A stretch of DNA of 58,821 nt from IMG/VR virus record IMGVR_UViG_3300037875_000261. The stretch is one strand, 5' to 3'. Positions within the stretch are counted from its first letter, which is position 1. Each line of letters starts with the position of its first letter. Made by a program: the position numbers and the translations under genes. The stretch comes from a virus. Below the pieces are notes generated by a model. It saw only the letters and a program-made list of their open reading frames with translations. It was not told where the DNA came from and made no database searches. Positions 1 to 57,697 of the stretch are shown here, piece by piece.

Positions 1-1
1 T

Positions 2-33
2 CATGTCGTTGCCTTTCGTGGTGGTGGTGGTGG
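2..33 (-). repeat. CA-rich start-associated leader, copy at the window edge. It belongs to gene 58507..58788 if the contig is circular.
   Basis: Minus strand reads CCACCACCACCACCACGAAAGGCAACGACATG. It is identical to 58786-58821. Confidence 0.8.
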
Positions 34-35
34 AC

Positions 36-67
36 GGGCGACGCGCGCTGTCTGTCACGCGTCGCCC
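36..67 (-). terminator. GC-rich hairpin downstream of gene 94..471
   Basis: Perfect 10-bp stem gggcgacgcg (36-45) / cgcgtcgccc (58-67) with a 12-nt loop. It is followed on the minus strand by the CA-rich leader rather than a U-tract. Confidence 0.4.
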
Positions 68-93
68 CGCGCAGTCGCTCTTGACTCCGCCGT

Positions 94-471
94 TCAGATC
101 GCGGCCTTCTCGCACCGCCAGCAGTCGCACCCGTCAACGTGCTCGACCGCGTGATCGACTCGGGTGACGTTCCTGCCGTTGACCTCGAAGCGCGGGTCGG
201 CGGCGATCGCCGCCATCATGTCGTGCTCCCAACTCGCCGCGCCGTGCGGCGCGTTGCACCACATCACGACGGCGGTCGGCTTGCGCCTCGTTCCGTTGCC
301 GCTCTCGGCAACCTGATACCCAGGCTCGCGATAGTGGAAGGAATGATATCCCCCCGACTTCTGGAAGCCCGCCTTGCGCAGCAGCGTCGATACCTGCCTC
401 GCGATCGCGATACCCTTCGCCTGCGTGCGATCGAACCTCGCGCGCTTCTGCCTGATCGTTTCCTTGCTCAT
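94..471 (-). CDS. hypothetical early protein (125 aa)
   Basis: ORF-track frame 94..642 trimmed to the internal ATG at 471 (MSKETIRQ...), which sits directly after a perfect leader copy. The C-terminus has CDCWRC. No family recognised. Confidence 0.6.
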   Translation of the reverse strand: MSKETIRQKRARFDRTQAKGIAIARQVSTLLRKAGFQKSGGYHSFHYREPGYQVAESGNGTRRKPTAVVMWCNAPHGAASWEHDMMAAIAADPRFEVNGRNVTRVDHAVEHVDGCDCWRCEKAAI

Positions 472-497
472 GTCGTTGCCTTTCGTGGTGGTGGTGG
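469..497 (-). repeat. CA-rich start-associated leader copy
   Basis: CCACCACCACCACGAAAGGCAACGACATG fills the entire 26-nt gap between the stop at 498 and the ATG at 471. Confidence 0.85.
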
Positions 498-1307
498 TTA
501 CGCCGCAGCCCTGTAGTGCGGTCGCTTGAAGAAGGCGAAGTGCGCCTTGTCGTCCGAACGCGTGAGCGTCGCCCTGAGCGTCAGAGTCATGCCCTTGAGT
601 TGCGGCTCGCGGTCGCCGCCGTACTCGTCCTCGCGGATCCACTCGACCGAATCGAGCAGGCTGCTCGGCGCGTTGCCGTTGGCGAGCCAGACGCCGTACT
701 CAGTCTCGACCTTGACCGTGACGCGCCAGTTCGTGCCGTAGTCGCTGAACGTCTCCTTCGCCGACACGATCGTGCCGGTGAACTCGACGCGACCCTCGGG
801 CGCGTCGGTCGTCGCCTCGGGGTGCGCGATGTCGTTCGCGATCTTCATCGCGAGCGCGATCTGCGCCTCGCTGATCGAGCCGTACAGCGCGACCTTGTCG
901 GCGAGGTCGCGGCTGATGCGGTGATCGGCCTTGAGCGCCTTGGCGAGCTTCGGTCGGCAGGCGAGGAACGAAAGACCGGCAGCGGCTTTCGCGTCGGCGA
1001 TCGCCTTGCGCTCGGCGACCTTCTTCGCTCGCGCCGTGTCGCCGCGCTTCAACTTCTGGGCGTACGCCTTCGGGCTGTACGTCGTCTTCGAGTTGCGGGT
1101 ATCAGCGCCGTGACACTTGAAGCAGATCCCGCCATCGACGTACCAGGGACCGTAGCCCGAGCCGCCGCAGCGGTAGCACGGCGTCGGCACGACGATCTCG
1201 CCGGTGCCGGTCAGGTACGCGGCGAGCGCGTCGGGGTGCATCTCTTCGAGATACGCGAGCCCCTGCTCGTCGGTGCGGATCGGCTTGCGTTTCGTGGTGG
1301 TGGTCAT
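498..1307 (-). CDS. hypothetical protein with zinc-ribbon-like CxxC..CxxC (269 aa)
   Basis: Frame 498..1445 trimmed to the ATG at 1307 (MTTTTKRKP...) after a perfect leader. Motif CYRCGGSG...CFKCHG. Confidence 0.6.
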   Translation of the reverse strand: MTTTTKRKPIRTDEQGLAYLEEMHPDALAAYLTGTGEIVVPTPCYRCGGSGYGPWYVDGGICFKCHGADTRNSKTTYSPKAYAQKLKRGDTARAKKVAERKAIADAKAAAGLSFLACRPKLAKALKADHRISRDLADKVALYGSISEAQIALAMKIANDIAHPEATTDAPEGRVEFTGTIVSAKETFSDYGTNWRVTVKVETEYGVWLANGNAPSSLLDSVEWIREDEYGGDREPQLKGMTLTLRATLTRSDDKAHFAFFKRPHYRAAA

Positions 1308-1335
1308 GTCGTTGCCTTTCGTGGTGGTGGTGGTG
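1305..1335 (-). repeat. CA-rich start-associated leader copy
   Basis: CACCACCACCACCACGAAAGGCAACGACATG. The coding start ATGACCACCACCACGAAACGCAAG repeats most of the motif again. Confidence 0.85.
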
Positions 1336-1345
1336 AGAGTGTCGA

Positions 1346-1723
1346 CTACCTGATCAGGTACTCGACCCCGCCGAAGTCGACGGCTGTGTAGTCCATCGCA
1401 AGCTCGCCAGCGGCCTGCTCCCAGTCGATGCAGTTCATCGGCCACGTCGCGGTCGAGTCGAACATGCCGCAGTCCTCCGCAATCTCGCGGGCGTAGTCCT
1501 CGAAGTACGAGAACCGGATCAGCGCCTCGCCGTACTCCCAGTCGTCGGCGTAGCCCGAGGCGTCAGCCTCAAGCCCGTCGAGCGCGACGAGTTCGGCGTC
1601 GTCTTCGTAGTCGCGATCCTCGCCGAGTTCGTTCAGGAACTCGATGCGCTCGATGACGTCGCGCGAGTCGATCACGTCGAGGCGGTTGTGGATCTGTTTC
1701 GGGGCCGTGTAGAGGTTCGTCAT
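1346..1723 (-). CDS. acidic protein, ArdA-like anti-restriction candidate (125 aa)
   Basis: Very Asp/Glu-rich. The C-terminal pattern YFEDYAREIAEDCGM...IDWEQAAGELAMDYTAVDFGGVEYLIR resembles the ArdA family C-terminus from memory. ATG follows the leader. Confidence 0.45.
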   Translation of the reverse strand: MTNLYTAPKQIHNRLDVIDSRDVIERIEFLNELGEDRDYEDDAELVALDGLEADASGYADDWEYGEALIRFSYFEDYAREIAEDCGMFDSTATWPMNCIDWEQAAGELAMDYTAVDFGGVEYLIR

Positions 1724-1751
1724 ATCGTTGCCTTTCGTGGTGGTGGTGGTG
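1721..1751 (-). repeat. CA-rich start-associated leader copy
   Basis: CACCACCACCACCACGAAAGGCAACGATATG. Confidence 0.85.
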
Positions 1752-1762
1752 TCGGTCGCGGA

Positions 1763-2266
1763 TCAGTCGACGGCGAGCGGCCAGAAGCCGAAGTCAGCGC
1801 CGTCGCCTTCGTGCGACCCGAAGTAGTGACCGGCGGGCGCGAACTCTTCGAGCAGGTCGAACAGCTCTTCGAGGTCGTAGGCCGACGCGTCCGTGGTGTT
1901 GTAGTCGTCGCCGTGCGTCGCGACGCGACGCTCGATCTCGCCGAGCCAGATGTCCTCCCTGCCGTGCTTGAGCGGGTTAGCGTCGGGGCCGAGGCTTCGA
2001 CGCTCGCGCAGCACGTCAAGCTCGGACAGGAATGTCGGCACCAGATCGTTCACGTTCATCGTGCCCGTCGAGATGCTACCGGCCTCGGCGACAGTCCGCA
2101 GACGATCGCGCTCGAACTCGATCTGATCCTTCGCGAACCGGACCGACCCCGGCGAGAAGATGTGCGCGAGCAGTCCGCCGCGACCGGCGTGCTTGCGTGC
2201 GTCTTCGATGTACTCCTCGCATACGCGGATCGTGTCGAGGATCTCGTTGCGTTCTTCGTTCGTCAT
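1763..2266 (-). CDS. hypothetical acidic early protein (167 aa)
   Basis: Complete ORF with ATG after a perfect leader. No family recognised. Confidence 0.6.
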   Translation of the reverse strand: MTNEERNEILDTIRVCEEYIEDARKHAGRGGLLAHIFSPGSVRFAKDQIEFERDRLRTVAEAGSISTGTMNVNDLVPTFLSELDVLRERRSLGPDANPLKHGREDIWLGEIERRVATHGDDYNTTDASAYDLEELFDLLEEFAPAGHYFGSHEGDGADFGFWPLAVD

Positions 2267-2294
2267 ATCGTTGCCTTTCGTGGTGGTGGTGGTG
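2264..2294 (-). repeat. CA-rich start-associated leader copy
   Basis: CACCACCACCACCACGAAAGGCAACGATATG. The gap to the upstream stop at 2300 is 33 nt. Confidence 0.85.
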
Positions 2295-2299
2295 TCGGT

Positions 2300-2524
2300 C
2301 TACGCGTCGGGGTGGTCGACGTAGATGTCGGATCCCGCGTCGTAGTACCGGCCCTCGATCGGGTCGTAGTACAGCACGCGGCTGTCGGCAAACTGGAACG
2401 GACCCTCAAGCCCGGCCCGCCTCGGATGATCCGTCGTGTCGATGGGGCGCACGCTCGTACCCTGCGCCCGAAGCGCACGTTCGAGGAGCGCGGCGTGCTC
2501 GGTTCTGTTCGTGGAGCTGGTCAT
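2300..2524 (-). CDS. hypothetical small protein (74 aa)
   Basis: Frame 2300..2701 trimmed to the ATG at 2524 (MTSSTNRT...). Degenerate leader CCACCACTCCAAACCAAAGGACCACGACATG. Confidence 0.5.
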   Translation of the reverse strand: MTSSTNRTEHAALLERALRAQGTSVRPIDTTDHPRRAGLEGPFQFADSRVLYYDPIEGRYYDAGSDIYVDHPDA

Positions 2525-2564
2525 GTCGTGGTCCTTTGGTTTGGAGTGGTGGTTGGTGAGGGCG

Positions 2565-2747
2565 TTAGCGGGGTGCCGCGTCTGCGGCGGACTGCTTCGC
2601 AGCTTCGAGCTTCTCAACGAGCTTGTGTGCGCGGAGGGTCTTCGGGTTCCAGTGAGCGCGGTTGCCCATCGGGGGGGCGGACGGGCAGGCGGCTTTCGCA
2701 AGTGAGATGAGCTTGGCGAGGTCGCGCTGGGTGATCGTGATGTTCAT
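2565..2747 (-). CDS. hypothetical small protein (60 aa)
   Basis: Frame 2565..3002 trimmed to the ATG at 2747 (MNITITQRD...). Degenerate leader CACCACTTCAAACCAAAGGACACCAGCCATG. Confidence 0.45.
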   Translation of the reverse strand: MNITITQRDLAKLISLAKAACPSAPPMGNRAHWNPKTLRAHKLVEKLEAAKQSAADAAPR

Positions 2748-2778
2748 GGCTGGTGTCCTTTGGTTTGAAGTGGTGATG

Positions 2779-3048
2779 TCAGCGACCGAGGTGACCTCGG
2801 CGAGAGTCGGCGGAACGCTGGCTCGCGGTGAAGCTGCGCTTCTTGCCGTTGAGCCAGTAGAACTTGTATCCGCCCGGTGCGTCACTCGGGGCGAGAGGGT
2901 GGAGACGGCTGCGGACAGTGAGCCAGCAGGCGCTGTAGACCTGAGTGACGGTAACGTAGCCGCCGGGGTTCGCGAGGCTCGCGGCCCTGGCGCGGTAGTC
3001 AACGTCCTCCCAGGAGGAGCAGTCGAGCGAGATGTCGATCTGGTGCAT
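2779..3048 (-). CDS. hypothetical small protein (89 aa)
   Basis: Frame 2779..3279 trimmed to the ATG at 3048 (MHQIDISLD...). Leader ACACCACCACCACGAAAGCAGAAAGATCATG. Confidence 0.45.
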   Translation of the reverse strand: MHQIDISLDCSSWEDVDYRARAASLANPGGYVTVTQVYSACWLTVRSRLHPLAPSDAPGGYKFYWLNGKKRSFTASQRSADSRRGHLGR

Positions 3049-3083
3049 GATCTTTCTGCTTTCGTGGTGGTGGTGTTGTCGGT

Positions 3084-3305
3084 CTACGCGTTGCGGCCAG
3101 CCTCGAAGGCTGCCGCAAGCGCGTCGCGCAGACCCGAGACGCCGACGTCGTGGAAGTCGAGCGAGTCGCTGTTGCGGGTTTCGAGCGTCTCGATGAAGAG
3201 GTGCTCGGCGGCGATCTCCGCGAGGAGCGCGTCGGCGGGGGCGGTCGGGCGTCCCGGCAGCAGATGGGTCGCGGCCCATGTCGTGGTGGTGGTGTTGTTC
3301 GTCAT
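3084..3305 (-). CDS. hypothetical small protein (73 aa)
   Basis: Frame 3084..3458 trimmed to the ATG at 3305 (MTNNTTTTTW...) after a perfect leader. Confidence 0.55.
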   Translation of the reverse strand: MTNNTTTTTWAATHLLPGRPTAPADALLAEIAAEHLFIETLETRNSDSLDFHDVGVSGLRDALAAAFEAGRNA

Positions 3306-3333
3306 GTCGTTGCCTTTCGTGGTGGTGGTGGTG
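3303..3333 (-). repeat. CA-rich start-associated leader copy
   Basis: CACCACCACCACCACGAAAGGCAACGACATG, directly downstream (minus sense) of box copy A. Confidence 0.85.
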
Positions 3334-3362
3334 AAGAGGTCACGCGCTACCGTCGCTCTTCC
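3333..3362 (-). repeat. 30-nt intergenic box, copy A
   Basis: Plus strand reads gaagaggtcacgcgctaccgtcgctcttcc. Identical to 3448-3477 and 29/30 with 4378-4407. Confidence 0.85.
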
Positions 3363-3364
3363 AC

Positions 3365-3389
3365 GCCGCCCCGGAGCTACGGGGGCGAC
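3365..3389 (-). promoter_or_regulatory. covarying stem-loop, copy A
   Basis: Minus strand GUCGCCCC-CGUAGCUCC-GGGGCGGC. The one non-Watson-Crick position is a G.U pair only when read on the minus strand. Confidence 0.45.
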
Positions 3390-3447
3390 CTGTCCGGTCG
3401 GCCAGTCGGCCAGTCGGATCCGTGGTGGTGGTGGTGATGGTGATGGC

Positions 3448-3477
3448 GAAGAGGTCACGCGCTACCGTCGCTCTTCC
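3448..3477 (-). repeat. 30-nt intergenic box, copy B
   Basis: Identical to 3333-3362. It lies about 115 nt away, so copies A and B form a tandem unit. Confidence 0.85.
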
Positions 3478-3479
3478 GC

Positions 3480-3506
3480 GCCGCCCTCTTAGCCATGGTG
3501 GGCGAC
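3480..3506 (-). promoter_or_regulatory. covarying stem-loop, copy B
   Basis: Minus strand GUCGCCC-ACCAUGGCUAAGA-GGGCGGC. Same position relative to the box as copy A. Confidence 0.45.
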
Positions 3507-3510
3507 CTGT

Positions 3511-3534
3511 CCGGTCGGCTGTCCCGGCACTGCC
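3511..3534 (-). repeat. 24-nt intergenic repeat
   Basis: ccggtcggctgtcccggcactgcc is identical to 4267-4290. Confidence 0.8.
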
Positions 3535-3538
3535 TCAG

Positions 3539-3570
3539 CCCCGGTCGCACTCGCTGTCGAGTGGCCGGGG
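3539..3570 (-). terminator. hairpin just downstream of the kinase-like gene
   Basis: ccccgg-tc-gcactcg-ctgt-cgagtgg-ccgggg. There is no clear U-tract. Confidence 0.4.
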
Positions 3571-3583
3571 TGGGCAGTCCTTT

Positions 3584-4063
3584 CTAGTAGTTCTCGACGA
3601 CGGTCACCGTGTCGGCGTGGGGCGCGATGATCTCGAAGGACGTCGAGATGTCGCGGCCCTTCGAGCGCACGATGTGCTCGGGCACGACTCGTTCGCGGTT
3701 GGCGTTTCGCTCAAGCGCGACCCGCATCGGGACCTTGACGTAGAGAAGCTCGATCTCGTAGCCGAAGCTCTTCGCATCGTTCATGCGTCGAAGCATCTTC
3801 TCCGAGTTCGTCCCCGTGCCGTCGACCAGCATGTCGGTGCCGCTCGCCATCGTCTCGGCAAGCAGCGCCTCGGCCTTGTCGTTGCTCCAGGCATGGAGCA
3901 CGCCGGGATCCTTCGGATCGTAGTCGGGGTGCGCCTCTTTGAAGAGGTCGGGGTCGATGACGGTCATGCGTCCGATCGGGTAGCGGTCGTTCGCGACCGT
4001 GCTCTTGCCCGAACCGGGCAGGCCCATCGTGAAGATCGCGAGCGGGGTGGTGGTCGTGTTCAT
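3584..4063 (-). CDS. P-loop kinase, zeta-toxin / AAA_33-like (159 aa)
   Basis: Walker A MGLPGSGKST, then IDPD and LVDGTG. Its size and layout are typical of zeta-toxin-like nucleotide/sugar kinases. Leader CCACCACCACCACCACCAAGGAGAACGACATG. Confidence 0.65.
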   Translation of the reverse strand: MNTTTTPLAIFTMGLPGSGKSTVANDRYPIGRMTVIDPDLFKEAHPDYDPKDPGVLHAWSNDKAEALLAETMASGTDMLVDGTGTNSEKMLRRMNDAKSFGYEIELLYVKVPMRVALERNANRERVVPEHIVRSKGRDISTSFEIIAPHADTVTVVENY

Positions 4064-4093
4064 GTCGTTCTCCTTGGTGGTGGTGGTGGTGGT

Positions 4094-4231
4094 CTAGCTG
4101 CGAGCCTCTTCGGCCATCGCGTCGAGTCGGTCCCTCGGGATGTCGGCCCATGTCGGGCGGCTGGCGAGGAACGCGGCGCGGATGTCTTCGACTTTGGTAG
4201 TCGTGTTGACGATGCGGATGGTGGTGGTCAT
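4094..4231 (-). CDS. hypothetical small protein (45 aa)
   Basis: Frame 4094..4303 trimmed to the ATG at 4231 (MTTTIRIV...). Leader CACCACCACCACCACGAAGGAGACAGCGATG. Confidence 0.4.
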   Translation of the reverse strand: MTTTIRIVNTTTKVEDIRAAFLASRPTWADIPRDRLDAMAEEARS

Positions 4232-4266
4232 CGCTGTCTCCTTCGTGGTGGTGGTGGTGTTGTTCG

Positions 4267-4290
4267 CCGGTCGGCTGTCCCGGCACTGCC
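4267..4290 (-). repeat. 24-nt intergenic repeat, second copy
   Basis: Identical to 3511-3534. Confidence 0.8.
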
Positions 4291-4305
4291 GAGGCCCCGT
4301 CACCT

Positions 4306-4331
4306 GTCACCCCTTAGCTATGGGGGGTGAC
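4306..4331 (-). promoter_or_regulatory. covarying stem-loop, copy C
   Basis: Minus strand GUCACCCC-CCAUAGCUAA-GGGGUGAC. The stem sequence differs from A and B but pairing is kept. The loop keeps the UAGCU core. Confidence 0.45.
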
Positions 4332-4377
4332 CTGCGCGGGGCTGGGTTCACGGTGTCGCTCGGGCCGTGCCCGAGAT

Positions 4378-4407
4378 GAAGAGGTGACGCGCTACCGTCG
4401 CTCTTCC
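4378..4407 (-). repeat. 30-nt intergenic box, copy C
   Basis: gaagaggtGacgcgctaccgtcgctcttcc, one mismatch to copies A and B. Confidence 0.8.
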
Positions 4408-4583
4408 CGTCGCCGCGTTTTCGTGCGCGGCTGCCCTCGGCTGTTGCTCTCCGGTGGGCGTTTCAGATTGTCAAAGATCTCGGGGGGCCGTCGCGGCCAG
4501 CCTCGCCGGGCGCATCACTGCGAGCCGGACTGGCGACAATACGGGAGGGGTGCGCCCGCATTCAAGGTTTCCGGGGATTGTTT

Positions 4584-4620
4584 CCCCGTATACCCCCCAC
4601 GGCCCTATACGGGGGCTTTT
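4584..4620 (+). terminator. hairpin plus T4 tract with no obvious plus-strand gene upstream
   Basis: 9-bp stem ccccgtata (4584-4592) / tatacgggg (4606-4614), then gcttttcc. Confidence 0.3.
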
Positions 4621-4662
4621 CCGCCCGTGGAGGCCCACGCGGGCGACCTCGCCCACATCGGC

Positions 4663-4705
4663 CCCCGGCCCCCGATCGCGCGAGGGACGCGGTCGGGGGC
4701 CGGGG
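4663..4705 (-). terminator. 13-bp perfect inverted repeat downstream of the last late gene
   Basis: ccccggcccccga (4663-4675) / tcgggggccgggg (4693-4705) with a 17-nt loop. It lies about 120 nt after the stop at 4827. Confidence 0.4.
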
Positions 4706-4722
4706 TCGGGGTCGGGGTCGGG
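4695..4722 (+). other. G-run array ((GGGGTC)n), a G-quadruplex-type motif
   Basis: Plus-strand G-runs GGGGG, GGGG, GGGG, GGGG and GGG separated by 1-2 nt. Confidence 0.5.
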
Positions 4723-4826
4723 CCGACAGGGAGTGAGGCGCGCGTCCCACCCGCAAGGTCGCGGTCATCCCTTGGGCAAGAGAGGCTGACCGCTACCAAA
4801 AACGAGACGCGCGCCCCGTGATCCCC

Positions 4827-5117
4827 TCACCCTCCTCGGGACATGAACGACCGCACCATGTCGAAGACAAGCGTCCCCGCGCCGACGACCATCGCCGCGA
4901 CCTGAATCTTGATCAGCCACGTCGCCTGCGACGCGAACCGCTCGACGTTGCGCACGCGCTCGAACAGTCCCGGCTCGCCGTTGCCCCTGATCATGTTCAT
5001 CACGTCCGACTCGTCGTCGGCGTGCCTGCGCATGTCATCTCGGAGATTCGCGTGCGCCTCTGACAGCGTGTCGATCTTCGCGTGTAGTCCCGTCACCGAT
5101 AGGTCTTTGTCGTTCAA
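4827..5117 (-). CDS. coiled-coil protein with a C-terminal TM segment (96 aa)
   Basis: Complete ORF. The C-terminal hydrophobic stretch is WLIKIQVAAMVVGAGTLVF. It is the last gene of the tail block. Confidence 0.55.
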   Translation of the reverse strand: MNDKDLSVTGLHAKIDTLSEAHANLRDDMRRHADDESDVMNMIRGNGEPGLFERVRNVERFASQATWLIKIQVAAMVVGAGTLVFDMVRSFMSRGG

Positions 5118-5135
5118 GGGCTCCGTCCGTTCCGT

Positions 5136-5792
5136 CTATCGGACTCGCTCGATCTGGGCGAACGATCCGGCAAGCAGCGTGCAAGAAGTTGTCGTCGTGC
5201 CGTCGCGCTGAGTCTGGAGGAAAATCGTATCGCCGCTGGTGACGGCGAATCGTTCGCTGATGGTCGATCCGCTCTCGACCTGCCCGTTCGCGTTCCTGTG
5301 GTACGACTGGTTCCAGACCCCGTAGCTCGCGACGCCTCCAACGGCGAGACGGTTCTTGATGCTGACGCGAGTTCCCGCCGACGTGGAGTAGACGTTCATC
5401 TCGACGCGCACCTCGCCCGTGAAGTTGCAGGTGACGAGCTGCGCGGTCTTCGTGGTCGTCTCAGTGAAGTCGACGTTCGGATCCCAGCCCGTCTTGTTCT
5501 GGTTGAAGATGTCGACCTGCGCGAACGAGGCGTTGTTGATCTCGTCGCCGACGCGCCCCTTCATCTTGATCCACGATCGCGTGCCGTCGTCGACGATCAG
5601 GTTCTCGTCCATGTCCAGATCGCCGGTCATCGCCGTCGATCCGTCGACGTCGAGGCGCGCGGCCAGACCAGTCGCGATCGAGTCGAGCAACTCTTGTAGG
5701 TCGTCGCCGGTCAGGCCGGACACGGCGGAGAGGATCGGGATCATGCGCGGGTCGGGCGCGGACGATCCGGGGTATCTGAGGTTCGATGACAT
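5136..5792 (-). CDS. tail fibre-like protein (218 aa)
   Basis: LDVDGSTAMTGDLDMDENLI resembles the common fibre repeat (GG..MtG.L.m..n.I). The C-terminus is beta-rich. The position follows the J-like gene. Confidence 0.55.
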   Translation of the reverse strand: MSSNLRYPGSSAPDPRMIPILSAVSGLTGDDLQELLDSIATGLAARLDVDGSTAMTGDLDMDENLIVDDGTRSWIKMKGRVGDEINNASFAQVDIFNQNKTGWDPNVDFTETTTKTAQLVTCNFTGEVRVEMNVYSTSAGTRVSIKNRLAVGGVASYGVWNQSYHRNANGQVESGSTISERFAVTSGDTIFLQTQRDGTTTTSCTLLAGSFAQIERVR

Positions 5793-5795
5793 GCG

Positions 5796-6203
5796 TCAGG
5801 CCGAGACGTCCTGCTCGAAGCGCGCAACCCAGCCGACGACCTTGATCTTGTCGGCCACGGGGGGCTCGACGCCGATGGTGTAGGTGGCACCCGTCACGTC
5901 GCGGCGAAAGCGTTCGCCCTGCAAGACCCAAGCGTAGCCCTCGGGCGGCACGACGACCTTGACGGTCCCGTTCGTCTCCGCCCCGCCGCTGCCACCGATC
6001 GGATTCAAGACGATGTCGACCGTTCGTCGAACGGTGTCGATGTTGAACAGCTTGAGCGACACGGCGTCGATGTACTCGCGCCCGGCGATCGCGTGGGCGG
6101 GCACCTGATGAACAGCCGTGATCGCGCCGGTCGTGCTCAAGCTGAGAGGGAAACCATCCGGCGAACCGGACAGGGACTCGGTGACGACTTCTTGCTCGGC
6201 CAT
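5796..6203 (-). CDS. hypothetical tail-associated protein (135 aa)
   Basis: Complete ORF packed between the J-like gene and the fibre gene. Confidence 0.5.
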   Translation of the reverse strand: MAEQEVVTESLSGSPDGFPLSLSTTGAITAVHQVPAHAIAGREYIDAVSLKLFNIDTVRRTVDIVLNPIGGSGGAETNGTVKVVVPPEGYAWVLQGERFRRDVTGATYTIGVEPPVADKIKVVGWVARFEQDVSA

Positions 6204-6204: not shown

Positions 6205-9200
6205 TCAGAAGCTCTCGTTCAGGAGGAAGCGACGCGCGCTCGTCATGTCGTGCAGAGTCGCGGCGATCACGCGAACGCGGGTGCGGAAGGAATGAATGCG
6301 AACGTCGTACGTCGTGTCGGGACGCGTGGCGACGATCCTGAACTGGATGTCGACGAACGAGTAGAGCCCCGGCTTGAACTCGCGCCAAGCCTGCCAGCCG
6401 TCGCTCGCTCCGGTCGTGTTGATCCGAGCCTCGATACCGATCGTCGCGTTCGCCGTCTCGTTCGGCAGCACATGCGTCGGGCCTTCCCACGTCGCGCGTA
6501 CCGCGAGCGGGTCGCCCCACATCCCGGAGGCCGCTCCCCAGTGGATCGGACTGATCTGCTCCGCCGCGACCGACGCCTCGACGTAGCAGCGGCGGGGCTG
6601 GCTCTTGTGATACGCGACGCGCGTGCCCGTCTCAGCCGTCGTGTACGTCGCGCTCACTCCCGCGCTGAACTCAAGCCACCCGTCGGCGTGACGTTGCAGA
6701 TTCGATAACGCGGGATCGCCCGTCGGCGGGGCGCTGTCGGTTTTCCACCCGTTCGCGTAGGTCGACCACTCATTGTCGCCGAACTCGCCGGGCCATCGAC
6801 TTGTGTCCGTCAGCACGTCGGGCGTGAACGTGATCGTCGCGTGCTCGCTGTACTGCCCGAGCGTATTGCGTGCGCGGAAGTACAGGTCACCGATCGACCA
6901 GTCACTCAGCGGCGGAGACTCCGATGTACCGGGCTGGGAAACGAACACCACCGGGGCCGCGATCCATCCGCCGCGCCTGATCTCGACGACGTATGTGTCG
7001 CGGTTCGCGGTCGCGGGGATCCCCCACGAATAGATGACCTGATCGCCCTGCATGTCGGCTGCGACGTTCGTCGGCACGTCGGGATACGGGCCGATCCCGA
7101 CGACCGTGTGCGTCGCGCGTCCGCAGTTGTCGGCGATCGCGAACGCCCCCCGATGCGTCACGGGCTGGATCGCGACGTCGATCGAGCTACCGGCGACGGC
7201 GGCGTCGAGCGGTACGCGCGCGCTGGTCGCGTTTCCTTCTACCGTGCGTGCGATCTCCCACTGCGCCCCGTCCTCTCGCGTGAGCACGTTCGTCCGCGCG
7301 TGATGCACGACCGTCGCCGGGTCGTGCGCCCACGAAACGAACAACACGGCGCGAACACCGCCGGGGATGGCGACGTATCTGTCGTCGGTCGTGACACCTC
7401 GCACGCGACCGGGCGTGACCCTGTCGTCGCCTGGGACGTCGTCGCCGCCGACGCCGCTCTGAATGAGTTCCGTGACGGTGATCGGGTCGACCACGTCGTC
7501 GACGTAGATCGACGCGTTGTACTCTATGAACTGAATGGACTTCGTCATGTCGACGAGCTGCTCGGTGCTAGTCACCTCGACGAGAAGCTCGTCGCCGTTC
7601 CTGACGAGGATGTACGCGTCGTCCTTGCTGGCCTTGGCGGGCAGCGCCGTCCAGCCGCCGGTCGTGTCAAGCGTGACGGTGGTTCCCGCCGCGTACGATC
7701 CGCCGCCCGTGGTCAGCTTCGCCTGATGACGGTGCGACGCCTCGCCGACTTGAATGAACAGATAGTATTCGGACACGCCGTCGATCACGAAGTCTCGATC
7801 GAGCGTGGCCGTCGTCGTGCTCGCCGCGTCAGACAGAATCCGACCGGATACGCCGCGAGGAACGATGTCGTGCGCGATGCGCGCGATGTCGCCGGGCTCG
7901 ACGGCGATCGAGTCGACGGCCATCTTGAAACGACCCTGCCTGATCAGGTCGTTGTTCACGTTCAGCGAGAAGTTCCCGTGACGGATGATCTGCGCCCGAT
8001 CCGTGACTCCCCAGACGAAGGTCTGATCCCTGCGCAGATCGACCAGCGACGCGGGGTTCTTGATCGACTTGTGATTCACGATCTCGATCGCGCGTTCGTG
8101 ACGGTCGTCGGCGTCGAGGAAGCCGATGTCGATCGAGTTGTCTCGCTGCTCCGGTCCCTCGTACTCGATCTCGAACGACCCCTTGATGTACGAGCCCATC
8201 CCGACCTCGACGTCGGGCGACCTCGGGTGCGAATACTTGACGGAGATCACCGAGCCACGCTGTACGGGAACCGCGCGACCGACCGCACATATCTCGATGA
8301 GCGCATCCCACGCCGTGCGAGTCTCGTCGAAGATGCCGTTGAGCGCGAAGCGGTGCTGGCCCGTCGTGTAGAACGCGCCATTCGCCTCGGCCTCGGGCGT
8401 GACGATTCCGTCGGCGATCAGGTACTCGGACCCGCTGACGAATTCTTCCCAGGGCTCCGTTTCGTCCGTGCGATCCCACCAGCACTTGACAACCCACTGG
8501 ACCGCCTCCTGCACGATGTCGTGAATCTCGTACCCCGTACCCTCGGGCGAGTCGAGATCATTCGTCAGAAGATCGACGCCGCTCGCGGGCCAGTTCTCAA
8601 GGCGCACGAATCCGCCGATCCTGAACTCCTCCGGCAGCACGTCGCCGAAGCGCGGCAGCCCGGTCGTCTGCGATATGCGCGCGATGTACATCCACAGCGC
8701 ACCGCGCACCTCACCAGTGACGGGGTCGGTCGCCTCGACGCCTTGGGAGAACCAGCGAATGTCGTCATGGATGTATTCGACGTTCGTCGTGTGCTCGACC
8801 TTCGGTCGCCCGTCCCACACGACCTCGTCGCAGTAGTCGGCCCACGCCCGGAACGCGAGCAGGTCGACGCGGTCGATGCTGTAGGTCGTGCCGAGCCCGT
8901 ACTCCTTCGACAAGATCAGGTCGAGCGCGCACCACGCCGGGTTCGACGAGTGACTGCGCGCGATCGTCGGCACCGCGATCGACTCGCCGTCCCAGACGGG
9001 GACCGCGCGACCCTTGAGCAAGAACGAAAGCTCGGGCTGCGTCGTGTTGAGCTGCTCGGTCGCGCGAATCTTCACGCCGACGAGCGTCGAGTTGGGATAC
9101 CGAAGCTCGACGTCGAGCACGCTGACCACCGCCTCGACCTCAACCTCGTCGACTGTCGACGCGTGCGTCGAGTCGACGTTCGTGCGAAGCGCCTCGACGA

Positions 9201-23739: not shown

Positions 23740-23822
23740 GTGCTTCTATCCTCGTTTCGTATGCGGGTGGATAAAAGCGGGGGGGGCGAGGAGCACTCGC
23801 CCCCCCCGCGTCGCGTATCGGA

Positions 23823-32650: not shown

Positions 32651-33295
32651 TCACCGCAACGTGTGAGCGCCATCATCGACGTCAGCATAACCCAACCCGG
32701 CGCGCTTCGCATTCGCCCGCATCCCGTCCTTGGCCTTCTCGACTAACTGGCGTACGCGCTCGCGAGTCACGACGCCGATGCAGTCGTCGTGCTTGATCGA
32801 CTCCAGCGTGCGTCCCATCACGATGTGCTCGTACGCCGCGTGCCGATGTCGCGGCTTCACGCCGTAGAACAGGCGGTCGATCATGTCGCGGAACTCGACG
32901 CCGTACGTCGTGTCTTCGAGATCGGCGTCGGGCTGCGCGACCGTCGCGAAGAAGTCGTCGCCCTCGTCGTCGCCACGATCGGGCGACGACACGCGCGCGG
33001 TCGCGTGGAACTGGTTGCCGCCCGGTGTCCCCGCCGCGTGTCGAATGAAGTCCCACACGGCACCGCGCACCTGCCAGTACGCGCACGTCGTCCACGCACC
33101 GCGCGCCGGATCCCATCGGTCCTTCGCGGCGATCAGCCCGACGCGACCTGCTTGCAGGAGGTCGTCGCGATCGAAGCAGACCCGATAGCGTTCGTGCAGC
33201 GCCCACGCGAAGAACTGATGCACGACGCGCTTCACGATCCGGTCGTGGTCGATCACGTCGATGTCGTCGGGGCGCGCCGGTCGCTTCGTCTTCAC
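32651..33295 (-). CDS. sigma-70-family RNA polymerase sigma factor with regions 2 and 4 only (214 aa)
   Basis: Region 2 DDLLQAGRVGLIAAKDRWDPARGAWTTCAYWQVRGAVWDFIR. Region 4.2 IGVVTRERVRQLVEKAKDGMR. The GTG start overlaps the terminase stop (GTGA). Confidence 0.8.
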   Translation of the reverse strand: MKTKRPARPDDIDVIDHDRIVKRVVHQFFAWALHERYRVCFDRDDLLQAGRVGLIAAKDRWDPARGAWTTCAYWQVRGAVWDFIRHAAGTPGGNQFHATARVSSPDRGDDEGDDFFATVAQPDADLEDTTYGVEFRDMIDRLFYGVKPRHRHAAYEHIVMGRTLESIKHDDCIGVVTRERVRQLVEKAKDGMRANAKRAGLGYADVDDGAHTLR

Positions 33296-40194: not shown

Positions 40195-42627
40195 CTATTC
40201 GGTCCCCTGCCCCGGCCCCTCGATATGCCCGGCCTCGATCGCCTGCGCGAACTGGATCAGCTCGGCCCCGTTCTTCGGGTGTACCTGCCGGAAGCCCACG
40301 CCGTAGATCGTCTGGGCTGCCTCGTAGAGTTGCGCGTACGCCTGACGATCGCGGCGTGCGATCGCGATGCGCATGGCGAACGCGAACGAGTTGCCGCCCT
40401 GGAACGTCTCGGTGCCGACGTTGTAGTCGGGGAAGCGCGGCGACGTCGAGCCGTCTGGCGTCGGCCCGGTGGCCTCGGTCGGCTGTGGGTCGTACGCCGT
40501 CTCGCCGTCCCACGACGCGACGGCTGCCTGCGAGATGATGCCGAAGCGTTCGCGCCCCTTCGAGTCGACCTCGCCGTCGAGCCACCACGGGCCGTCGGGG
40601 TCGGTCATCGCGAGCATGGTCTTGAAGATCGTGTCGTGGCATGCGTTGACGAGATCGGTGTCGGTCGCGAACGCGCGAGCGAGCCCGCGTAGCCCGTGCT
40701 CACCGATGCGCACCTCGTACGCTTGACAGGCGCGGTGCTCGTTCTTGAATATCTTGTTCGCCTTGGCCGACCATGTGCATGTCGACGTCATCGCGTTGCC
40801 GACGACCTCGACCGCGTTCCGCGCGAAGTCCGCGAGAACGTCGCGGCGATCGTCACCGGGCCGAAGGAGCTGCGCTGCGGTCGCGACCGTGTCCCATAGC
40901 CAGCCGTCCTCGCGTCCCATCTGCGCTCCGGTGGCGGGGTCGGTCGTCGTATGCTCCTGAAGTCGAGCGAGTCGACCGTGCGGGTGGCCGTTCGTCCAGA
41001 GCGTGCCGCTGAACGCGTGCTCGATCAGCATGTCGATCGACGCTGCGTCGCCCGTCAGCCACGCGAGTTGCGCGCACTCGTTCGTGAATCGTCGGTCGTG
41101 CTGCCGGTCGTAGCTCTTGAACTTCTGGCCGTCGGGCATCGACCGATACGCCCCATCATCGTCGCCCTTCTCGCCGCCCGACAACTCGATCGCGATCTCG
41201 CTGTCCATTCCCGCTGACGTGATCGGGTTGCCGTCGTCGTCGACGTACAGGTCGCACTGCCGGTCGGCCTTCATGCGTTGCTTCAGACACGCGAGCTTGT
41301 AGCCGACGTGCGAGTCGAACCAGTCGGTGAAGTAGATGCCCTCGCCTCCGGTACCGCCGCCGTACTTCGGGCCGTACGGGTGAACGCCGCCAGCCTCGTC
41401 GGTCGTGATCGGGTACGCGTCGGCGAAGCCCGACGAGAGCACCGAGGAGAAGCGCGCGAGGTCAGCGCCGACGTTCGTCTGCACCGAGCCGATCGGCAGG
41501 CGGAACCCTTGCGCGAAGTACGCGTTCGTCGCGGTCCACGTCCACGACGCCGACTGGTTCTGGTCCTCGTTGTCGAGTACGTCGACTGTGTCGGGCTGCA
41601 CGGCGCAGAACGTCGGCAAGTTCGACGACTCGTCGTGGCCGTGTATCAGGGTGAAGCGACGAATGATCTGCGCGCCGGGCGGCATAACGGTTCCGGTCGC
41701 GCCGTCGATGATCGCGACGTACCTGACACCGCGCCACGCGATGGGCGACGGAAACTGCGGGGCGAGCGCGAGCCCGTCGGGGGCGATGGGCGACGGAAAC
41801 TGCGCGACGTCCCTGACACCGCGCCACGCGATGGGCGACGGAAACTGCGGGGCGAGCGCGAGCCCGTCGGGGGCGATGATGCTGACCGATACCGAATCGG
41901 CTCCGACTGCGTACCGCTCGATCTCGCCGCCGTCAGTTTGCCTCGATGCGTGTAGCAGGCGCACGACCATCTCGACCGAGCCGCTGCCCGACCACGCTGT
42001 CGTGTAGACCTTCGCGACGATACCGCCGCGCAGCTTGACGGTGTTCAGCATCGTCGCCGTATGCGAGCCGCGCGAGATGACGCGACCGCGCGCCGGGGAG
42101 AACGCGAACTCGTTCGGGCCGATGTGGCGGACGTACGAGGCAGACGACGCGGGGGTTCCAGCGACCGAGCACGCGAAGCGGAACTCGCCGCGCAGCGCCG
42201 ATGCGACGTTCGACGGCAGCCAGAAGCGCGGGCGTATGCCGCCGCGTTCCGCGATGCGCACCTCGTACGCGTCCGACTCGTCGAGGTCGCTGACTGTCCA
42301 GCGCACGACCGACGGCATCCCGTGCGCGTCGAAGACGACGGGCTGGATCTGCGCGAGCTTGTCGCCGACGTAGATGTCGATCAGGTTCTTGTGGAGTTGA
42401 ATGCGTCGGTGCATCGGCACCGGCAGCGTGCCGAAGGACGGGCCGCCGGGTCCGCCGCCGAGGATCGCGGCGACACTCGCCGCGCTGCGTTGCGTGAAGT
42501 TGTCGCCCTCGCCGTGCGGGATCTCGGGCGCGACGTCGCGCCCCGACTCGACGCGCGCGCCCGCGCCTTCCTCGCCTCGCCCGTGCTTATTCCAGAGGCT
42601 TCGTCGTGACGTCGTCGGATTCTGCAT
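40195..42627 (-). CDS. large unknown protein (about 810 aa) with a beta-rich N-terminal half and a helical C-terminal half
   Basis: Frame 40195..42882 trimmed to the ATG at 42627 (MQNPTTSRR...), preceded by GAAGGGCAATCGCATG. An alternative ATG lies at 42414. No family recognised. Confidence 0.55.
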   Translation of the reverse strand: MQNPTTSRRSLWNKHGRGEEGAGARVESGRDVAPEIPHGEGDNFTQRSAASVAAILGGGPGGPSFGTLPVPMHRRIQLHKNLIDIYVGDKLAQIQPVVFDAHGMPSVVRWTVSDLDESDAYEVRIAERGGIRPRFWLPSNVASALRGEFRFACSVAGTPASSASYVRHIGPNEFAFSPARGRVISRGSHTATMLNTVKLRGGIVAKVYTTAWSGSGSVEMVVRLLHASRQTDGGEIERYAVGADSVSVSIIAPDGLALAPQFPSPIAWRGVRDVAQFPSPIAPDGLALAPQFPSPIAWRGVRYVAIIDGATGTVMPPGAQIIRRFTLIHGHDESSNLPTFCAVQPDTVDVLDNEDQNQSASWTWTATNAYFAQGFRLPIGSVQTNVGADLARFSSVLSSGFADAYPITTDEAGGVHPYGPKYGGGTGGEGIYFTDWFDSHVGYKLACLKQRMKADRQCDLYVDDDGNPITSAGMDSEIAIELSGGEKGDDDGAYRSMPDGQKFKSYDRQHDRRFTNECAQLAWLTGDAASIDMLIEHAFSGTLWTNGHPHGRLARLQEHTTTDPATGAQMGREDGWLWDTVATAAQLLRPGDDRRDVLADFARNAVEVVGNAMTSTCTWSAKANKIFKNEHRACQAYEVRIGEHGLRGLARAFATDTDLVNACHDTIFKTMLAMTDPDGPWWLDGEVDSKGRERFGIISQAAVASWDGETAYDPQPTEATGPTPDGSTSPRFPDYNVGTETFQGGNSFAFAMRIAIARRDRQAYAQLYEAAQTIYGVGFRQVHPKNGAELIQFAQAIEAGHIEGPGQGTE
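41722..41878 (-). repeat. in-frame tandem duplication with a 90-nt period
   Basis: 41722-41788 and 41812-41878 are 67/67 identical. The protein reads APDGLALAPQFPSPIAWRGVR twice. Confidence 0.85.
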
Positions 42628-52648: not shown

Positions 52649-52753
52649 GCCGCGACCGTACGACTGCGATGGGAGTGAAACAAGAAAGGCCCCCCGACAA
52701 CGACGTGGTGCGCACGTTGCCGGGGAGCCCCCGAGAGAGTTGACGCCATCAGC

Positions 52754-56445: not shown

Positions 56446-56736
56446 TTACTTCTTCGTGGTGGTTCCGAGCGCGCGGCGTGTACAGCCGAGCGCCTTCGAT
56501 ACGGCTGTCGCCTGCGAGGCCGTCGGCGTTGCCTCGCCGAGTTCCCAGCGCGCGAGCGTCGAGCTAGTGGCGGGCGTGCTGAACTGCACGCGCAACATCG
56601 CCGCCAGCATCGTCCGCGTCATGCCCTTCAGTTCACGACGATCGCGCATCGCGACGCCGTTCCATCCGAGCCGACCGGGATCAGACTTCGGTCGCCCGCC
56701 CCGCTTCGTCGCGCCGCGTCGTGTCGTCTTCTTCAT
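56446..56736 (-). CDS. XRE-family HTH regulator (96 aa)
   Basis: RRELKGMTRTMLAAML...TLARWELGEATPTASQATAVSKALG. Confidence 0.6.
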   Translation of the reverse strand: MKKTTRRGATKRGGRPKSDPGRLGWNGVAMRDRRELKGMTRTMLAAMLRVQFSTPATSSTLARWELGEATPTASQATAVSKALGCTRRALGTTTKK

Positions 56737-57079: not shown

Positions 57080-57333
57080 CGGACCACCCACTCGCAGACG
57101 TCGCCCGGCTGCCCGTGCCCGACGTGGTAGGTGCCGCCGCTGCCCGTCCGCACCGGGGCTGGGGGGGTGCCCCGTAGCGCCCCACACGGCGCGCTGTGCG
57201 GGCGCGTGCTGGACTTTGGGCCGATACGGGACTCGGACGCCGGGTGGATCATCGAGTGCGCCACAGCGACGCACGCGGCGAGCCCGAGCCCGAGCACGAT
57301 GCCGAGCAGAAGATAGAATCGGGTGTCGGTCAT
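57076..57333 (-). CDS. small lipoprotein (85 aa)
   Basis: MTDTRFYLLLGIVLGLGLAAC is a signal plus lipobox. It is coupled at both ends (TGATG and ATGA). The gene contains the 26-nt element and a GGTGCCCC copy. Confidence 0.45.
   Translation of the reverse strand: MTDTRFYLLLGIVLGLGLAACVAVAHSMIHPASESRIGPKSSTRPHSAPCGALRGTPPAPVRTGSGGTYHVGHGQPGDVCEWVVR
57205..57230. repeat. 26-nt element, copy 2
   Basis: cgtgctggactttgggccgatacggg matches 46221-46246 at 24/26 positions. GGTGCCCC lies at 57166-57173. Confidence 0.8.
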
Positions 57334-57545
57334 CAGGATACCTCGACCCATCGCATGCACGTCGCGAGCAGGTTGTCGTAGTCGCCGCTCATCGCTTCGC
57401 TGACGAACGTCTCGATCTCGGCGCGATCAACCGCCGCCCGGTCCAGCGCCCTCTTGACGATCCCGATCAGGTTGAAGGCGTTCCCGTCTTCGCCCGTGAG
57501 CGCGACCTCGATGTCGGGGTACTTGGGTCCGTTAGTTGTAACCAT
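57333..57545 (-). CDS. hypothetical protein (70 aa)
   Basis: Complete ORF. Leader ACCACCACCGAACGAAAGGACAGGAATG. Confidence 0.55.
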   Translation of the reverse strand: MVTTNGPKYPDIEVALTGEDGNAFNLIGIVKRALDRAAVDRAEIETFVSEAMSGDYDNLLATCMRWVEVS

Positions 57546-57608
57546 TCCTGTCCTTTCGTTCGGTGGTGGTTCGCCGACCGACGAACGTGTCGCCCGGCAC
57601 CGCGTAAA

Positions 57609-57642
57609 CCCCGCGCCCCCTGCCGAAGCAGAGGACGCGGGG
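57609..57642 (-). terminator. 15-bp hairpin with a UUCG tetraloop
   Basis: Minus strand CCCCGCGUCCUCUGC-UUCG-GCAGGGGGCGCGGGG (two G.U pairs), followed by TTTAC. Confidence 0.55.
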
Positions 57643-57697
57643 GAACAACACTAGCCACCACGTCGGCCACCACAGCCGACGGGTGATTGTCGATCTG

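Follow-up and report, generated by a model that had tools for sequence, protein, structure and literature searches.

The early region of a circular, high-GC phage genome of 58.8 kb, from an uncultured phage, was found to carry composite intergenic units, in which a conserved 30-nt box lies 3' of a GC hairpin and 5' of a gene leader or its remnant. These units are tentatively read as composite punctuation cassettes of the early operon that act like the PeSL cassettes of T4-type phages, a possibility rather than a settled assignment, and a role at the RNA level only is nearly as likely. The window analysed here is the whole stretch of DNA, with a length of 58,821 nucleotides.

Table 1. Features of the repeat units and their surroundings in the window, and unit promoters of three relatives
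Feature	Position	Strand	Description
Degenerate fourth unit	36-82	minus	AAGAGCGAC (74-82), 12-bp hairpin (36-67), then leader of gene 58507-58788
CA-rich leader with SD	3306-3332	minus	ACCACCACCACCACGAAAGGCAACGAC; before ATG at 3305; one of about 10 copies
Box A	3333-3362	minus	30-nt conserved box GGAAGAGCGACGGTAGCGCGTGACCTCTTC; abuts CA-rich leader of gene 3084-3305 with no gap
Hairpin A	3365-3389	minus	Stem of 8 bp, one of them U.G; loop of 9 nt; 2 nt from box A on its 5' side; -20.2 kcal/mol, z -1.6
Truncated leader remnant	3421-3447	minus	GCCATCACCATCACCACCACCACCACG; left by 115-nt tandem duplication
Box B	3448-3477	minus	Same sequence as box A; then truncated leader without SD or ATG
Hairpin B	3480-3506	minus	Stem of 7 bp, one of them U.G; loop of 13 nt; 2 nt from box B on its 5' side; -12.7 kcal/mol, z -0.4
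X string, copy 2	3511-3534	minus	Just 5' of hairpin B
Hairpin T	3539-3570	minus	After kinase stop codon; -22.7 kcal/mol, z -4.1; no U-tract
X string, copy 1	4267-4290	minus	GGCAGTGCCGGGACAGCCGACCGG; just 5' of leader of first early gene
Compound hairpin C'	4294-4342	minus	Core 4306-4331, paralogue of hairpins A/B, plus outer stem
Hairpin C1	4359-4375	minus	CUCGGGC-ACG-GCCCGAG; 2 nt 3' of box C; -12.0 kcal/mol, z -3.5
Box C	4378-4407	minus	Agrees with A and B at 29/30 positions, with G to C at 4386
Hairpin C0	4412-4431	minus	GCCGCG-CACGAAAA-CGCGGC; 4 nt 5' of box C; -11.9 kcal/mol, z -1.7
Candidate sigma-70-type early (hub) promoter	4536-4565	minus	TTGAAT-N18-TATTGT; 130 nt upstream of box C
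Canonical hairpin-plus-U-tract terminator	4802-4819	minus	Ends late operon
Unit promoter, L002			TGAAT-N18-TACTTA; spacing constant, spacer sequence variable
Unit promoter, L005			TGGACA-N15-TGgTATAGAT
Unit promoter, L015			TAGACT-N16-TATAAT

The box was present in three minus-strand copies with a single differing base (Table 1), as reported by the first-pass annotation, and no matches were expected in shuffles. Further copies were not found in this genome at up to 3 mismatches or with at least 18 of 30 matching positions, the degenerate fourth unit being counted separately. All copies are intergenic, share one orientation and head early gene blocks with a common CA-rich leader, in agreement with the earlier general claim of control elements in the early region. 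Their placement is regular, always 3' of a hairpin and 5' of a leader or gene start. Unit A, unit C and the fourth unit lead into a leader and an ATG (at 3305, 4231 and 58788, respectively), and unit B leads into a leader remnant only.

The box was conserved far beyond the hairpin paralogues beside it, which have diverged by 20-25% and contain indels. If it had diverged at the rate of the hairpins, a single difference in 30 nt would have a probability of 0.002-0.05. Box C is a 30-nt island of near identity inside non-homologous flanks. Folded alone, the box gave no significant structure (-8.7 kcal/mol, z -0.7). Its ends are 6-bp inverted arms, 18 nt apart, which are missing from the fourth unit. 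A MITE-like element was considered and rejected, as the inverted ends are present but a target-site duplication is not. A coding reading was likewise rejected, with G or C at 6 of 10 third-codon positions of the box versus about 0.85 in genes.

GC hairpins lie 2-4 nt 5' of boxes A, B and C, with folding energies from -11.9 to -20.2 kcal/mol. The three hairpins drawn previously (A, B and the core of C') were recovered with the same stems. Their combination with boxes into units held for A and B, but the pairing of box C with the core of C', 46 nt 3' of it, was abandoned: this core is a separate paralogue, and box C has a non-homologous 5' hairpin of its own (C0), overlooked in the first-pass annotation. 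Hairpins A and B indeed each have a G.U pair, at stem position 2, that exists on the minus strand only. The loop core UAGCU, described as common to all three, occurs in hairpins A and C' but reads UGGCU in hairpin B. As to the proposed covariation of the stems, pairing is kept, but the changes between C' and A and B comprise just one double-sided replacement (G-C to A-U) and one G.U to A-U change; three random substitutions left all 8 pairs intact in 2-8% of simulations.

The significance of the folds was uneven, with z -3.2 for the core of C' (-19.2 kcal/mol), z -1.6 for hairpin A and z -0.4 for hairpin B. The 114-nt context of C' (4232-4345, 5'UTR) reached z -2.9, and the 95-125-nt contexts of hairpins A and B folded no better than shuffles. 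Hairpin A was more stable in the sense direction (-20.2 kcal/mol on the minus versus -14.0 kcal/mol on the plus strand). A run of U was absent after hairpins A, B, C0, C' and T, so that none of them has the form of an intrinsic terminator.

A comparison of all intergenic regions for dyads and shared k-mers brought out the leader, the X string and the fourth unit, and nothing else. The leader has the sequence ACCACCACCACCACGAAAGGCAACGAyATG. The motif of the fourth unit, which the first-pass annotation had missed, reads AAGAGCGAC-N13-GCGTGAC at 54-82, and its GCGTGAC part (54-60) falls inside the 12-bp hairpin, which folds with -29.7 kcal/mol (z -2.8). This unit sits across the circular junction; the other copies all lie within 1.1 kb. 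The X string corresponds to a 24-nt duplication seen earlier, and the two copies agree exactly at 22 of 22 positions, with none expected by chance, and over 33 nt at 91%. These direct repeats bracket a two-gene cassette that consists of a 45-aa gene and the kinase gene. No complementary stretch was found in a search for trans-acting RNA pairing with the box or the leader.

The tandem of units A and B has a period of 115 nt and lies directly upstream of a leader and the ATG at 3305, as described before. On the two sides of a loop that has changed at about half of its positions, these units share 58 identical flanking nt. A near-identical contig (L010) has a single unit in place of the tandem pair, exactly one 115-nt unit fewer. 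Its unit is chimeric and combines hairpin B, the box and leader A, which is the pattern expected from crossing-over within the box. The indel may also have arisen when the assembly collapsed over the exact 30-nt repeat, the coverage of this contig being 6.5-fold.

A relaxed pattern search yielded the hub promoter as the only sigma-70-like match on the coding strand, outside all units. It matches 8 of 12 consensus positions and stays below the threshold of the promoter scan, which returned 0 sites in 2900-5000. An alignment places it in register with the four promoter units repeated in L002, the nearest relative, and in L004 its hexamers are unchanged and its spacer has 2 substitutions. Since this sole candidate lies upstream of all boxes, the boxes are probably situated within the early transcription unit. 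By inspection, a TTGnnn / TAnnnT pair at 16-19 nt was not found in any of the three units; together with the promoter scan, this agrees with the previous failure to assign -35/-10 elements there.

Other promoter classes were compared with the box. An ECF promoter was rejected on the spacing of GGAAG-N13-CGT (13 versus 16-17), and a sigma-54 promoter gave no fit by inspection. For sigma-28 (FliA), with the consensus TAAAGTTT-N11-GCCGATAA, the box segments GGAAGAGC and GTGACCTC match at no more than 2 of 8 positions each. The phage does encode a sigma factor, as stated in the first-pass annotation; the gene at 32651-33292 is FliA-like, with 53% and 42% identity to its closest homologues. Neither Pfam nor PHROGs detected a single-subunit RNA polymerase of the phage, and the unassigned 895-aa protein has no polymerase motif. 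Besides the terminator of the late operon (Table 1), canonical U-tract terminators are located in 23740-23822, 52649-52753 and 57546-57780.

Searches with the kinase and DUF6900 proteins yielded no intermediate relatives, identities falling from 99-100% (same population) directly to 71% or less. The phage is present in the JGI samples 3300037842 and 3300038301 and in the ENA assemblies ERZ4231630, ERZ4231633, ERZ4231635 and ERZ23495111. Relatives located via the kinase have repeated units in front of their early genes, with clear or plausible promoters (Table 1). The order in L002 is promoter-like unit, hairpin, CA-rich leader and ATG, the same as here. The units of L002, L005 and L015 are like those of the window in their place, before the kinase and neighbouring small early genes, and in the order of unit, hairpin, leader and ATG. 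They differ in that their conserved part aligns with the hub promoter and not with the box, which none of them contains.

Exact and degenerate box patterns retrieved no homologous box from viral, genome and metagenome contig collections. The sole match to a box pattern, in a Bacteroidales contig (L016), was taken as chance, about 0.3 matches being expected. The leader pattern gave one leader-like match each in L017 and L018 (viral and metagenome contigs), both unrelated to the phage. A blastn search of INPHARED phages returned nothing relevant, and the 218-aa late protein had no relatives in IMG/VR. Rfam gave no match at E up to 1 in 2500-5500 and none at the gathering score in the whole genome, and ARAGORN detected neither tRNA nor tmRNA. 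Homologues of the DUF6900 gene occur in genomes of Rhodobacteraceae, which hints at an alphaproteobacterial host.

As punctuation cassettes, the units would work as follows. Host RNA polymerase would start at the hub promoter and read through the region. The hairpin would form in the RNA and would end, insulate or protect the message from upstream; since it has no U-tract, it would not be a classical terminator. At the head of the next block, the 30-nt box would be recognised in the DNA by a sequence-specific protein. The box may be a secondary promoter of a non-sigma-70 type, possibly for the FliA-like sigma of the phage, or alternatively an operator or roadblock at which an early regulator binds, for example the XRE protein encoded at 56446-56736. 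The repeats may double as recombination points, and recombination at them would account for the 115-nt duplication, for the lack of it in the variant contig and for modules being shuffled around the kinase cassette.

The following points were counted for the PeSL-type reading: copy number and orientation of the box, a hairpin 5' of every box, conservation beyond the flanks, the position of boxes A and C ahead of a leader, the matching order of parts in L002, the repeated promoter units of the relatives, the identity of A and B around their diverged loop, retained pairing of the stems, sense stability of hairpin A, the chimeric unit of L010, and X repeats on both sides of the kinase cassette. 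Counted against it were the invariance of the box over all 30 positions, with no variable spacer as in real promoter families, and the low copy number (3-4 here versus about 50 PeSLs per T4-type genome). The inverted ends, 18 nt apart and missing from the fourth unit, are odd for a dimeric operator. The contexts of A and B, which fold like shuffles, the absence from the box of a sigma-70, ECF, sigma-54 or sigma-28 consensus, the absence of box-like motifs before middle and late genes, and the possible assembly collapse in L010 were also placed on this side. The options listed before (promoter, operator, antitermination site or small RNA) were not decisively narrowed: neither -35/-10 elements nor Rfam matches were found, and a nut-like arrangement fits unit C only.

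Nearly as likely as the PeSL-type reading, and possible on the same tentative footing, is an RNA-only role, with hairpin and box as a processing and stability site inside a long early transcript from the hub promoter. After endonuclease cleavage in the box, the hairpin would stay on the upstream message and shield its 3' end, and the message downstream would begin with the unstructured leader or, for unit C, with hairpin C1 at its 5' end. In phage T7, RNase III cuts early mRNA at conserved intergenic hairpins. The position of the single sigma-70-like promoter upstream of every box, and hence the probable transcription of the boxes, is consistent with this role, but the hub promoter is just a candidate with its 8 of 12 positions. 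The stems point in the same direction, with pairing kept via one compensatory change, G.U pairs in the sense strand only and an advantage of 6 kcal/mol for hairpin A in sense, as does the significantly structured 5'UTR segment 4232-4345. The hairpins have no U-tracts, though the phage has canonical terminators elsewhere. A cleavage site, however, needs no conserved stretch of 30 nt, and neither the box by itself nor the contexts of A and B are structured beyond shuffles. The helices are too short for RNase III, an AU-rich site of the RNase E type is absent, and Rfam gave no match.

That the box is the cognate promoter of the very divergent FliA-like phage sigma, of a compact 8+11+8 form unlike any known consensus and insulated from read-through by its 5' hairpin, was considered unlikely. 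The length of 30 nt would suit the 8+11+8 layout of a sigma-28 promoter. No bipartite or degenerate motif resembling the box was found above chance before middle or late genes, and the box is therefore not the general promoter of the phage sigma.

Equally improbable is that the units have no function of their own and are remnants of recent local duplication and gene conversion in a recombination-prone intergenic zone. Such an origin would agree with the small number of copies (3-4, within 1.1 kb plus one over the circular junction), with the simple tandem duplication of A and B that is missing in one contig, and with the lack of a homologous box in the viral, genome and metagenome collections and in L002. 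It does not account well for the 29/30 identity of box C amid non-homologous flanks, next to hairpin paralogues that have diverged by 20-25% with indels, nor for the 58 identical nt of A and B around a half-changed loop, the stem changes that keep pairing and the regular placement of the copies.

Processive antitermination of the nut or put type, in which the box would provide a boxA-like CCUCUUCA, a nearby hairpin would bind a phage or host factor and polymerase would pass the early-region hairpins, is very doubtful. In its favour, CCUCUUCA(CCAC) at the 3' end of the box is similar on inspection to boxA (CGCUCUUA / GCUCUUUAACAA), with agreement at 5-6 of 8 and at 8 of 12 positions, a tight hairpin follows 2 nt past the box in unit C, and the sites have the candidate promoter upstream of them and hairpins downstream. 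Against it, no hairpin follows the box in units A and B, which leaves unit C as the only fit. The hairpin of unit C (7-bp stem, 3-nt loop) does not look like boxB, the first G and the run of U are lacking from the match to boxA, the fourth unit has no CUCUUC end, and no N-like protein was identified.

Among known systems, stoperators of the L5 type are more than 20 short asymmetric repressor sites, in one orientation and spread through transcribed regions. They were rejected as a model; the uniform orientation is seen here too, but there are only 3-4 sites, all in the early region. In the nut site of lambda, boxA (CGCUCUUA) is followed within about 10 nt by the boxB hairpin, which has a 5-bp stem and a 5-nt purine-rich loop. 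The units share with it a conserved short box with a CUCUU core that adjoins a hairpin inside early transcription units. They differ in the reversed order of box and hairpin in A and B, in a hairpin geometry unlike boxB and in the imperfect match to boxA.

Cluster K mycobacteriophages carry the 13-nt SAS, GGGATAGGAGCCC, 3-8 nt upstream of start codons, and immediately upstream of SAS the ESAS, imperfect 17-bp inverted repeats with a 4-13-bp spacer (PMC3203893, PMC12699233). The CA-rich leader (ACCACC...GAAAGG) is likewise a conserved sequence right 5' of many start codons, and the hairpins are inverted repeats with a variable spacer just upstream at a subset of the genes, in one orientation throughout. 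The leader sequence is unlike GGGATAGGAGCCC, and the two are analogous, not homologous. The arms here have 7-8 bp and the loops 9-13 nt, the 30-nt box stands between hairpin and leader, and host and phage lineage differ.

T4-type phages have repeated promoter/stem-loop cassettes and cluster K mycobacteriophages have start-associated repeats; the former organise early expression and help gene swapping, and the latter probably do so too. The window has an architecture of this kind that is made of unrelated sequence, and its genome encodes a sigma factor and has just one promoter recognisable as host-type. If the box is a promoter or an operator, it would define the regulatory code of a sparsely sampled phage lineage and offer a small, testable case of cassette duplication and shuffling. 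If it is a promoter of the phage sigma, the phage would gain another entry point under its own control, shortly after the lone host-type promoter that heads a genome-long array of co-directional genes.

PeSLs combine a promoter, a G/C stem-loop and SD/ATG, with recombination between copies, and occur in the T4-type phages RB49, phi1, PST and nt-1 (PMC2839356, PMC4122927). They have strong sigma-70 -35/-10 elements with an AT-rich upstream region, whereas the box has neither hexamer. Their stem-loops were shown to terminate transcription, whereas the hairpins here, whose role in the RNA is putative, are without U-tracts, and there is no sequence similarity between PeSLs and the units. The likeness lies in the design. 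Both are short composite intergenic repeats in an early, variable region, with a G/C stem-loop beside a conserved recognition sequence (here 2-4 nt from the box) and with the SD and start codon of a small gene at the end (here in unit A, unit C and the fourth unit), and the copies, which in PeSLs are crossover points that add or remove cassettes, may act in this way here too. The units are a well-documented example of a known theme, with a putative function in early gene expression.

A 37-nt direct repeat at its ends shows the window to be a closed circular contig, about 58.8 kb long. The sequence is 65% GC and places almost every gene on the minus strand; its genes are those of a tailed phage. 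DUF6900 homologues occur in Pararhodobacter and Gemmobacter, which hints at a Rhodobacteraceae host. The late operon (minus sense) extends to 4827 and is closed by a canonical terminator of hairpin plus U-tract; small early genes run from the hub on past the circular junction. About ten early genes are preceded by a near-identical CA-rich leader of 27-31 nt (ACCACCACCACCACGAAAGGCAACGAyATG); variants such as CACCACTyCAAACCAAAGGAC precede genes 2300-2479 and 2565-2789. Gene 57333-57545 has an X-like string (GGTGCCGGGCGACA...GGCGAAC) that separates its leader from a canonical terminator; string and leader together resemble the X-plus-leader order before the first early gene. The kinase is found again in early regions of many uncultured phages.

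Coordinates of features in the window
Feature	Position	Strand	Remark
Box A	3333-3362	minus	30 nt
Box B	3448-3477	minus	30 nt
Box C	4378-4407	minus	30 nt
Hairpin A	3365-3389	minus	
Hairpin B	3480-3506	minus	
Hairpin C'	4306-4331 (core)	minus	extra outer stem, 4294-4342
5' hairpin of box C	4412-4431	minus	unrelated to A and B
3' hairpin of box C	4359-4375	minus	
X string	4267-4290, 3511-3534	minus	24 nt
X-like string	57580-57601	minus	
Hub	4826-4232	minus	non-coding, 595 nt, after late operon
Late terminator	4819-4802	minus	
Candidate early promoter	4565-4536	minus	
Two-gene cassette	3584-4231	minus	45-aa gene and 159-aa Zeta_toxin/AAA_33-type kinase, direct X repeats on both sides
Leader copies	1-4262, 57543-57570, 58785-58816	minus	
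Sigma factor	32651-33292	minus	213 aa, very divergent
XRE protein	56446-56736		
Primase, RecD-like helicase, exonuclease, AAA_24 protein			encoded in window
45-nt tandem repeats	41713-41878		within 895-aa ORF, encode repeated peptide (APDGLALAPQFPSPIAWRGVR)

The three box copies reported by the first-pass annotation were recovered exactly, with one difference among them, and none occurred in shuffled sequences; no further copy was found on either strand of the whole window even at 21 of 30 matches. The three hairpins with their stems, the G.U pairs existing in the sense strand only, the duplicated X string and the 115-nt tandem period of units A and B were likewise present. The assigned hairpin stands 2 nt 5' of the box in units A and B, but 46 nt 3' of the box in the case of C. 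A different hairpin sits 4 nt 5' of box C and a further one 2 nt 3' of it; because of the former, the order "hairpin, then box" is constant. Hairpin C' is a free-standing paralogue of hairpins A and B. Gene 58507-58788 is directly preceded by a degenerate fourth unit: GGCGGAGTC-AAGAGCGAC-N13-GCGTGAC, a 12-bp hairpin and, after it, the leader. The units were tentatively read as punctuation cassettes similar to the promoter-early stem-loops (PeSLs) of T4-type phages, which is the favoured reading but is held with low confidence.

The UAGCU loop core was confirmed in hairpins A and C' and is replaced by UGGCU in B. The stems of A/B and C' differ at three positions, comprising one compensatory pair and one change from G.U to A-U. 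The covariation claimed earlier is thus suggestive, not strong, as three random substitutions left all eight pairs intact in 2-8% of simulations. Against shuffled sequences only C' folded clearly better (z -3.2); z was -1.6 for A, -0.4 for B and near 0 for the wider contexts of both. An RNA-only element of processing and stability was considered almost as likely as the cassette reading.

Box C is a 30-nt island of 29/30 identity with flanks non-homologous to those of A and B, while the hairpin paralogues adjoining the boxes diverge by 20-25% plus indels. If the box had diverged at the hairpin rate, at most one difference in 30 nt would have a probability of 0.002-0.05. Units A and B are identical across 20 + 8 + 30 nt flanking the loop, and the loop differs at about half its positions. 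Box and stems are maintained by either selection or gene conversion, and the loops are free to vary. Leftovers of neutral duplication are an improbable explanation.

Six near-identical contigs from other samples (98.8-100% identity) held hardly any informative variation. One of them, L004, showed no change in 4232-4474 and five in the hub upstream of it; another (L012, 1.4-fold coverage) carried an uncompensated change in the closing pair of hairpin A. In L010 (2838-3000, against window 3306-3583) exactly 115 nt are missing. It keeps hairpin B together with a single box and leader A, the product expected of crossing-over within the box, and reflects either a real copy-number polymorphism or assembly collapse. 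Outside this population the identity of flanking proteins falls straight to 71% or less, and the box was not found in viral, genome and metagenome contig collections.

Distant relatives recovered via the kinase gene (L002, L005, L015) carry repeated units upstream of early genes. In the closest, L002 (71%), four units consist of TGAAT, an 18-nt spacer constant in length and variable in sequence, TACTTA, a hairpin and a ACCAACCACCACAGGAGA leader. Just upstream of the first promoter unit, its hub holds a 28-30-nt repeat (GAGGGGGsTAmCAAAGCCCTAmCGGGCT) in three tandem copies (L002:5433-5520). The L015 unit is TAGACT-N16-TATAAT followed by a CGAAACGAAA leader. In L005, of lower GC, the units (3046-3165, 4318-4437, 5892-6019, 8176-8295) contain TGGACA-N15-TGgTATAGAT near the ATG, with AAAsTTT-N11-CCCACAAA upstream. 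The latter has sigma-28-like geometry with a variable spacer and the promoter downstream of it; the ATG follows the -10 by about 12 nt, so the mRNA would be nearly leaderless.

The L002 units align in register with the hub sequence GGGGAAACAATCCCCGGAAACC-TTGAAT-N18-TATTGT, not with the box. This site, with GGAAAC...GGAAAC upstream, is the sole relaxed sigma-70-type match in coding-strand intergenic regions of the whole genome; in L004 its hexamers are unchanged and its spacer has two substitutions. It matches 8 of 12 consensus positions, under the threshold of the promoter scan, and therefore stays a candidate early promoter. If it is one, all boxes and hairpins would lie within the early transcription unit, and box C would sit in a 300-nt structured 5'UTR; region 4232-4345 is significantly structured (z -2.9).

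The box itself was ruled out as a sigma-70 promoter by scan and inspection, and rejected as sigma-54 promoter, consensus sigma-28 promoter and coding sequence. As an ECF-like promoter GGAAG-N13-CGT is too short. The phage sigma factor (Sigma70_r2, E 2.7e-5; top solved relative FliA, 6pmi, E 1.4e-6) has a FliA-like region 2 and VTRERVRQLVEKA as region 4.2; comparison with 1.84 billion representative proteins gave 53% and 42% identity for its nearest homologues. The box is not its general promoter, because no middle or late gene is preceded by a similar bipartite motif. No phage RNA polymerase was found among the window proteins. The box matched no Rfam family, tRNA or tmRNA. A terminator was rejected, since the hairpins lack the U-tracts of the canonical terminators present elsewhere in the genome, and so was a MITE, since 6-bp inverted ends occur without a target-site duplication. 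A nut/put-like antitermination site is very improbable.

Beyond the observed placement, orientation, conservation and preserved pairing of the PeSL-like cassettes, we infer every functional step. The hairpin would work in RNA, where it may serve the upstream message as an end point, an insulator or a protective structure. The box would be a protein recognition site where the next block begins, perhaps an operator/roadblock or else a secondary promoter of a type other than sigma-70, and the repeats may also serve as recombination points.

Architecture, and perhaps recombination behaviour, is common to these cassettes and PeSLs (PMC2839356, PMC4122927); however, what defines PeSLs is a strong sigma-70 promoter, and the window units have none. 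The CA-rich leader is analogous to the start-associated sequences (SAS) of cluster K mycobacteriophages, and the layout of leader plus upstream inverted repeat resembles SAS and extended SAS (ESAS) (PMC3203893, PMC12699233), whereas sequence and geometry differ. For lack of the PeSL promoter and because of these differences from SAS/ESAS, the cassettes belong to neither family and are a variant of a known theme.
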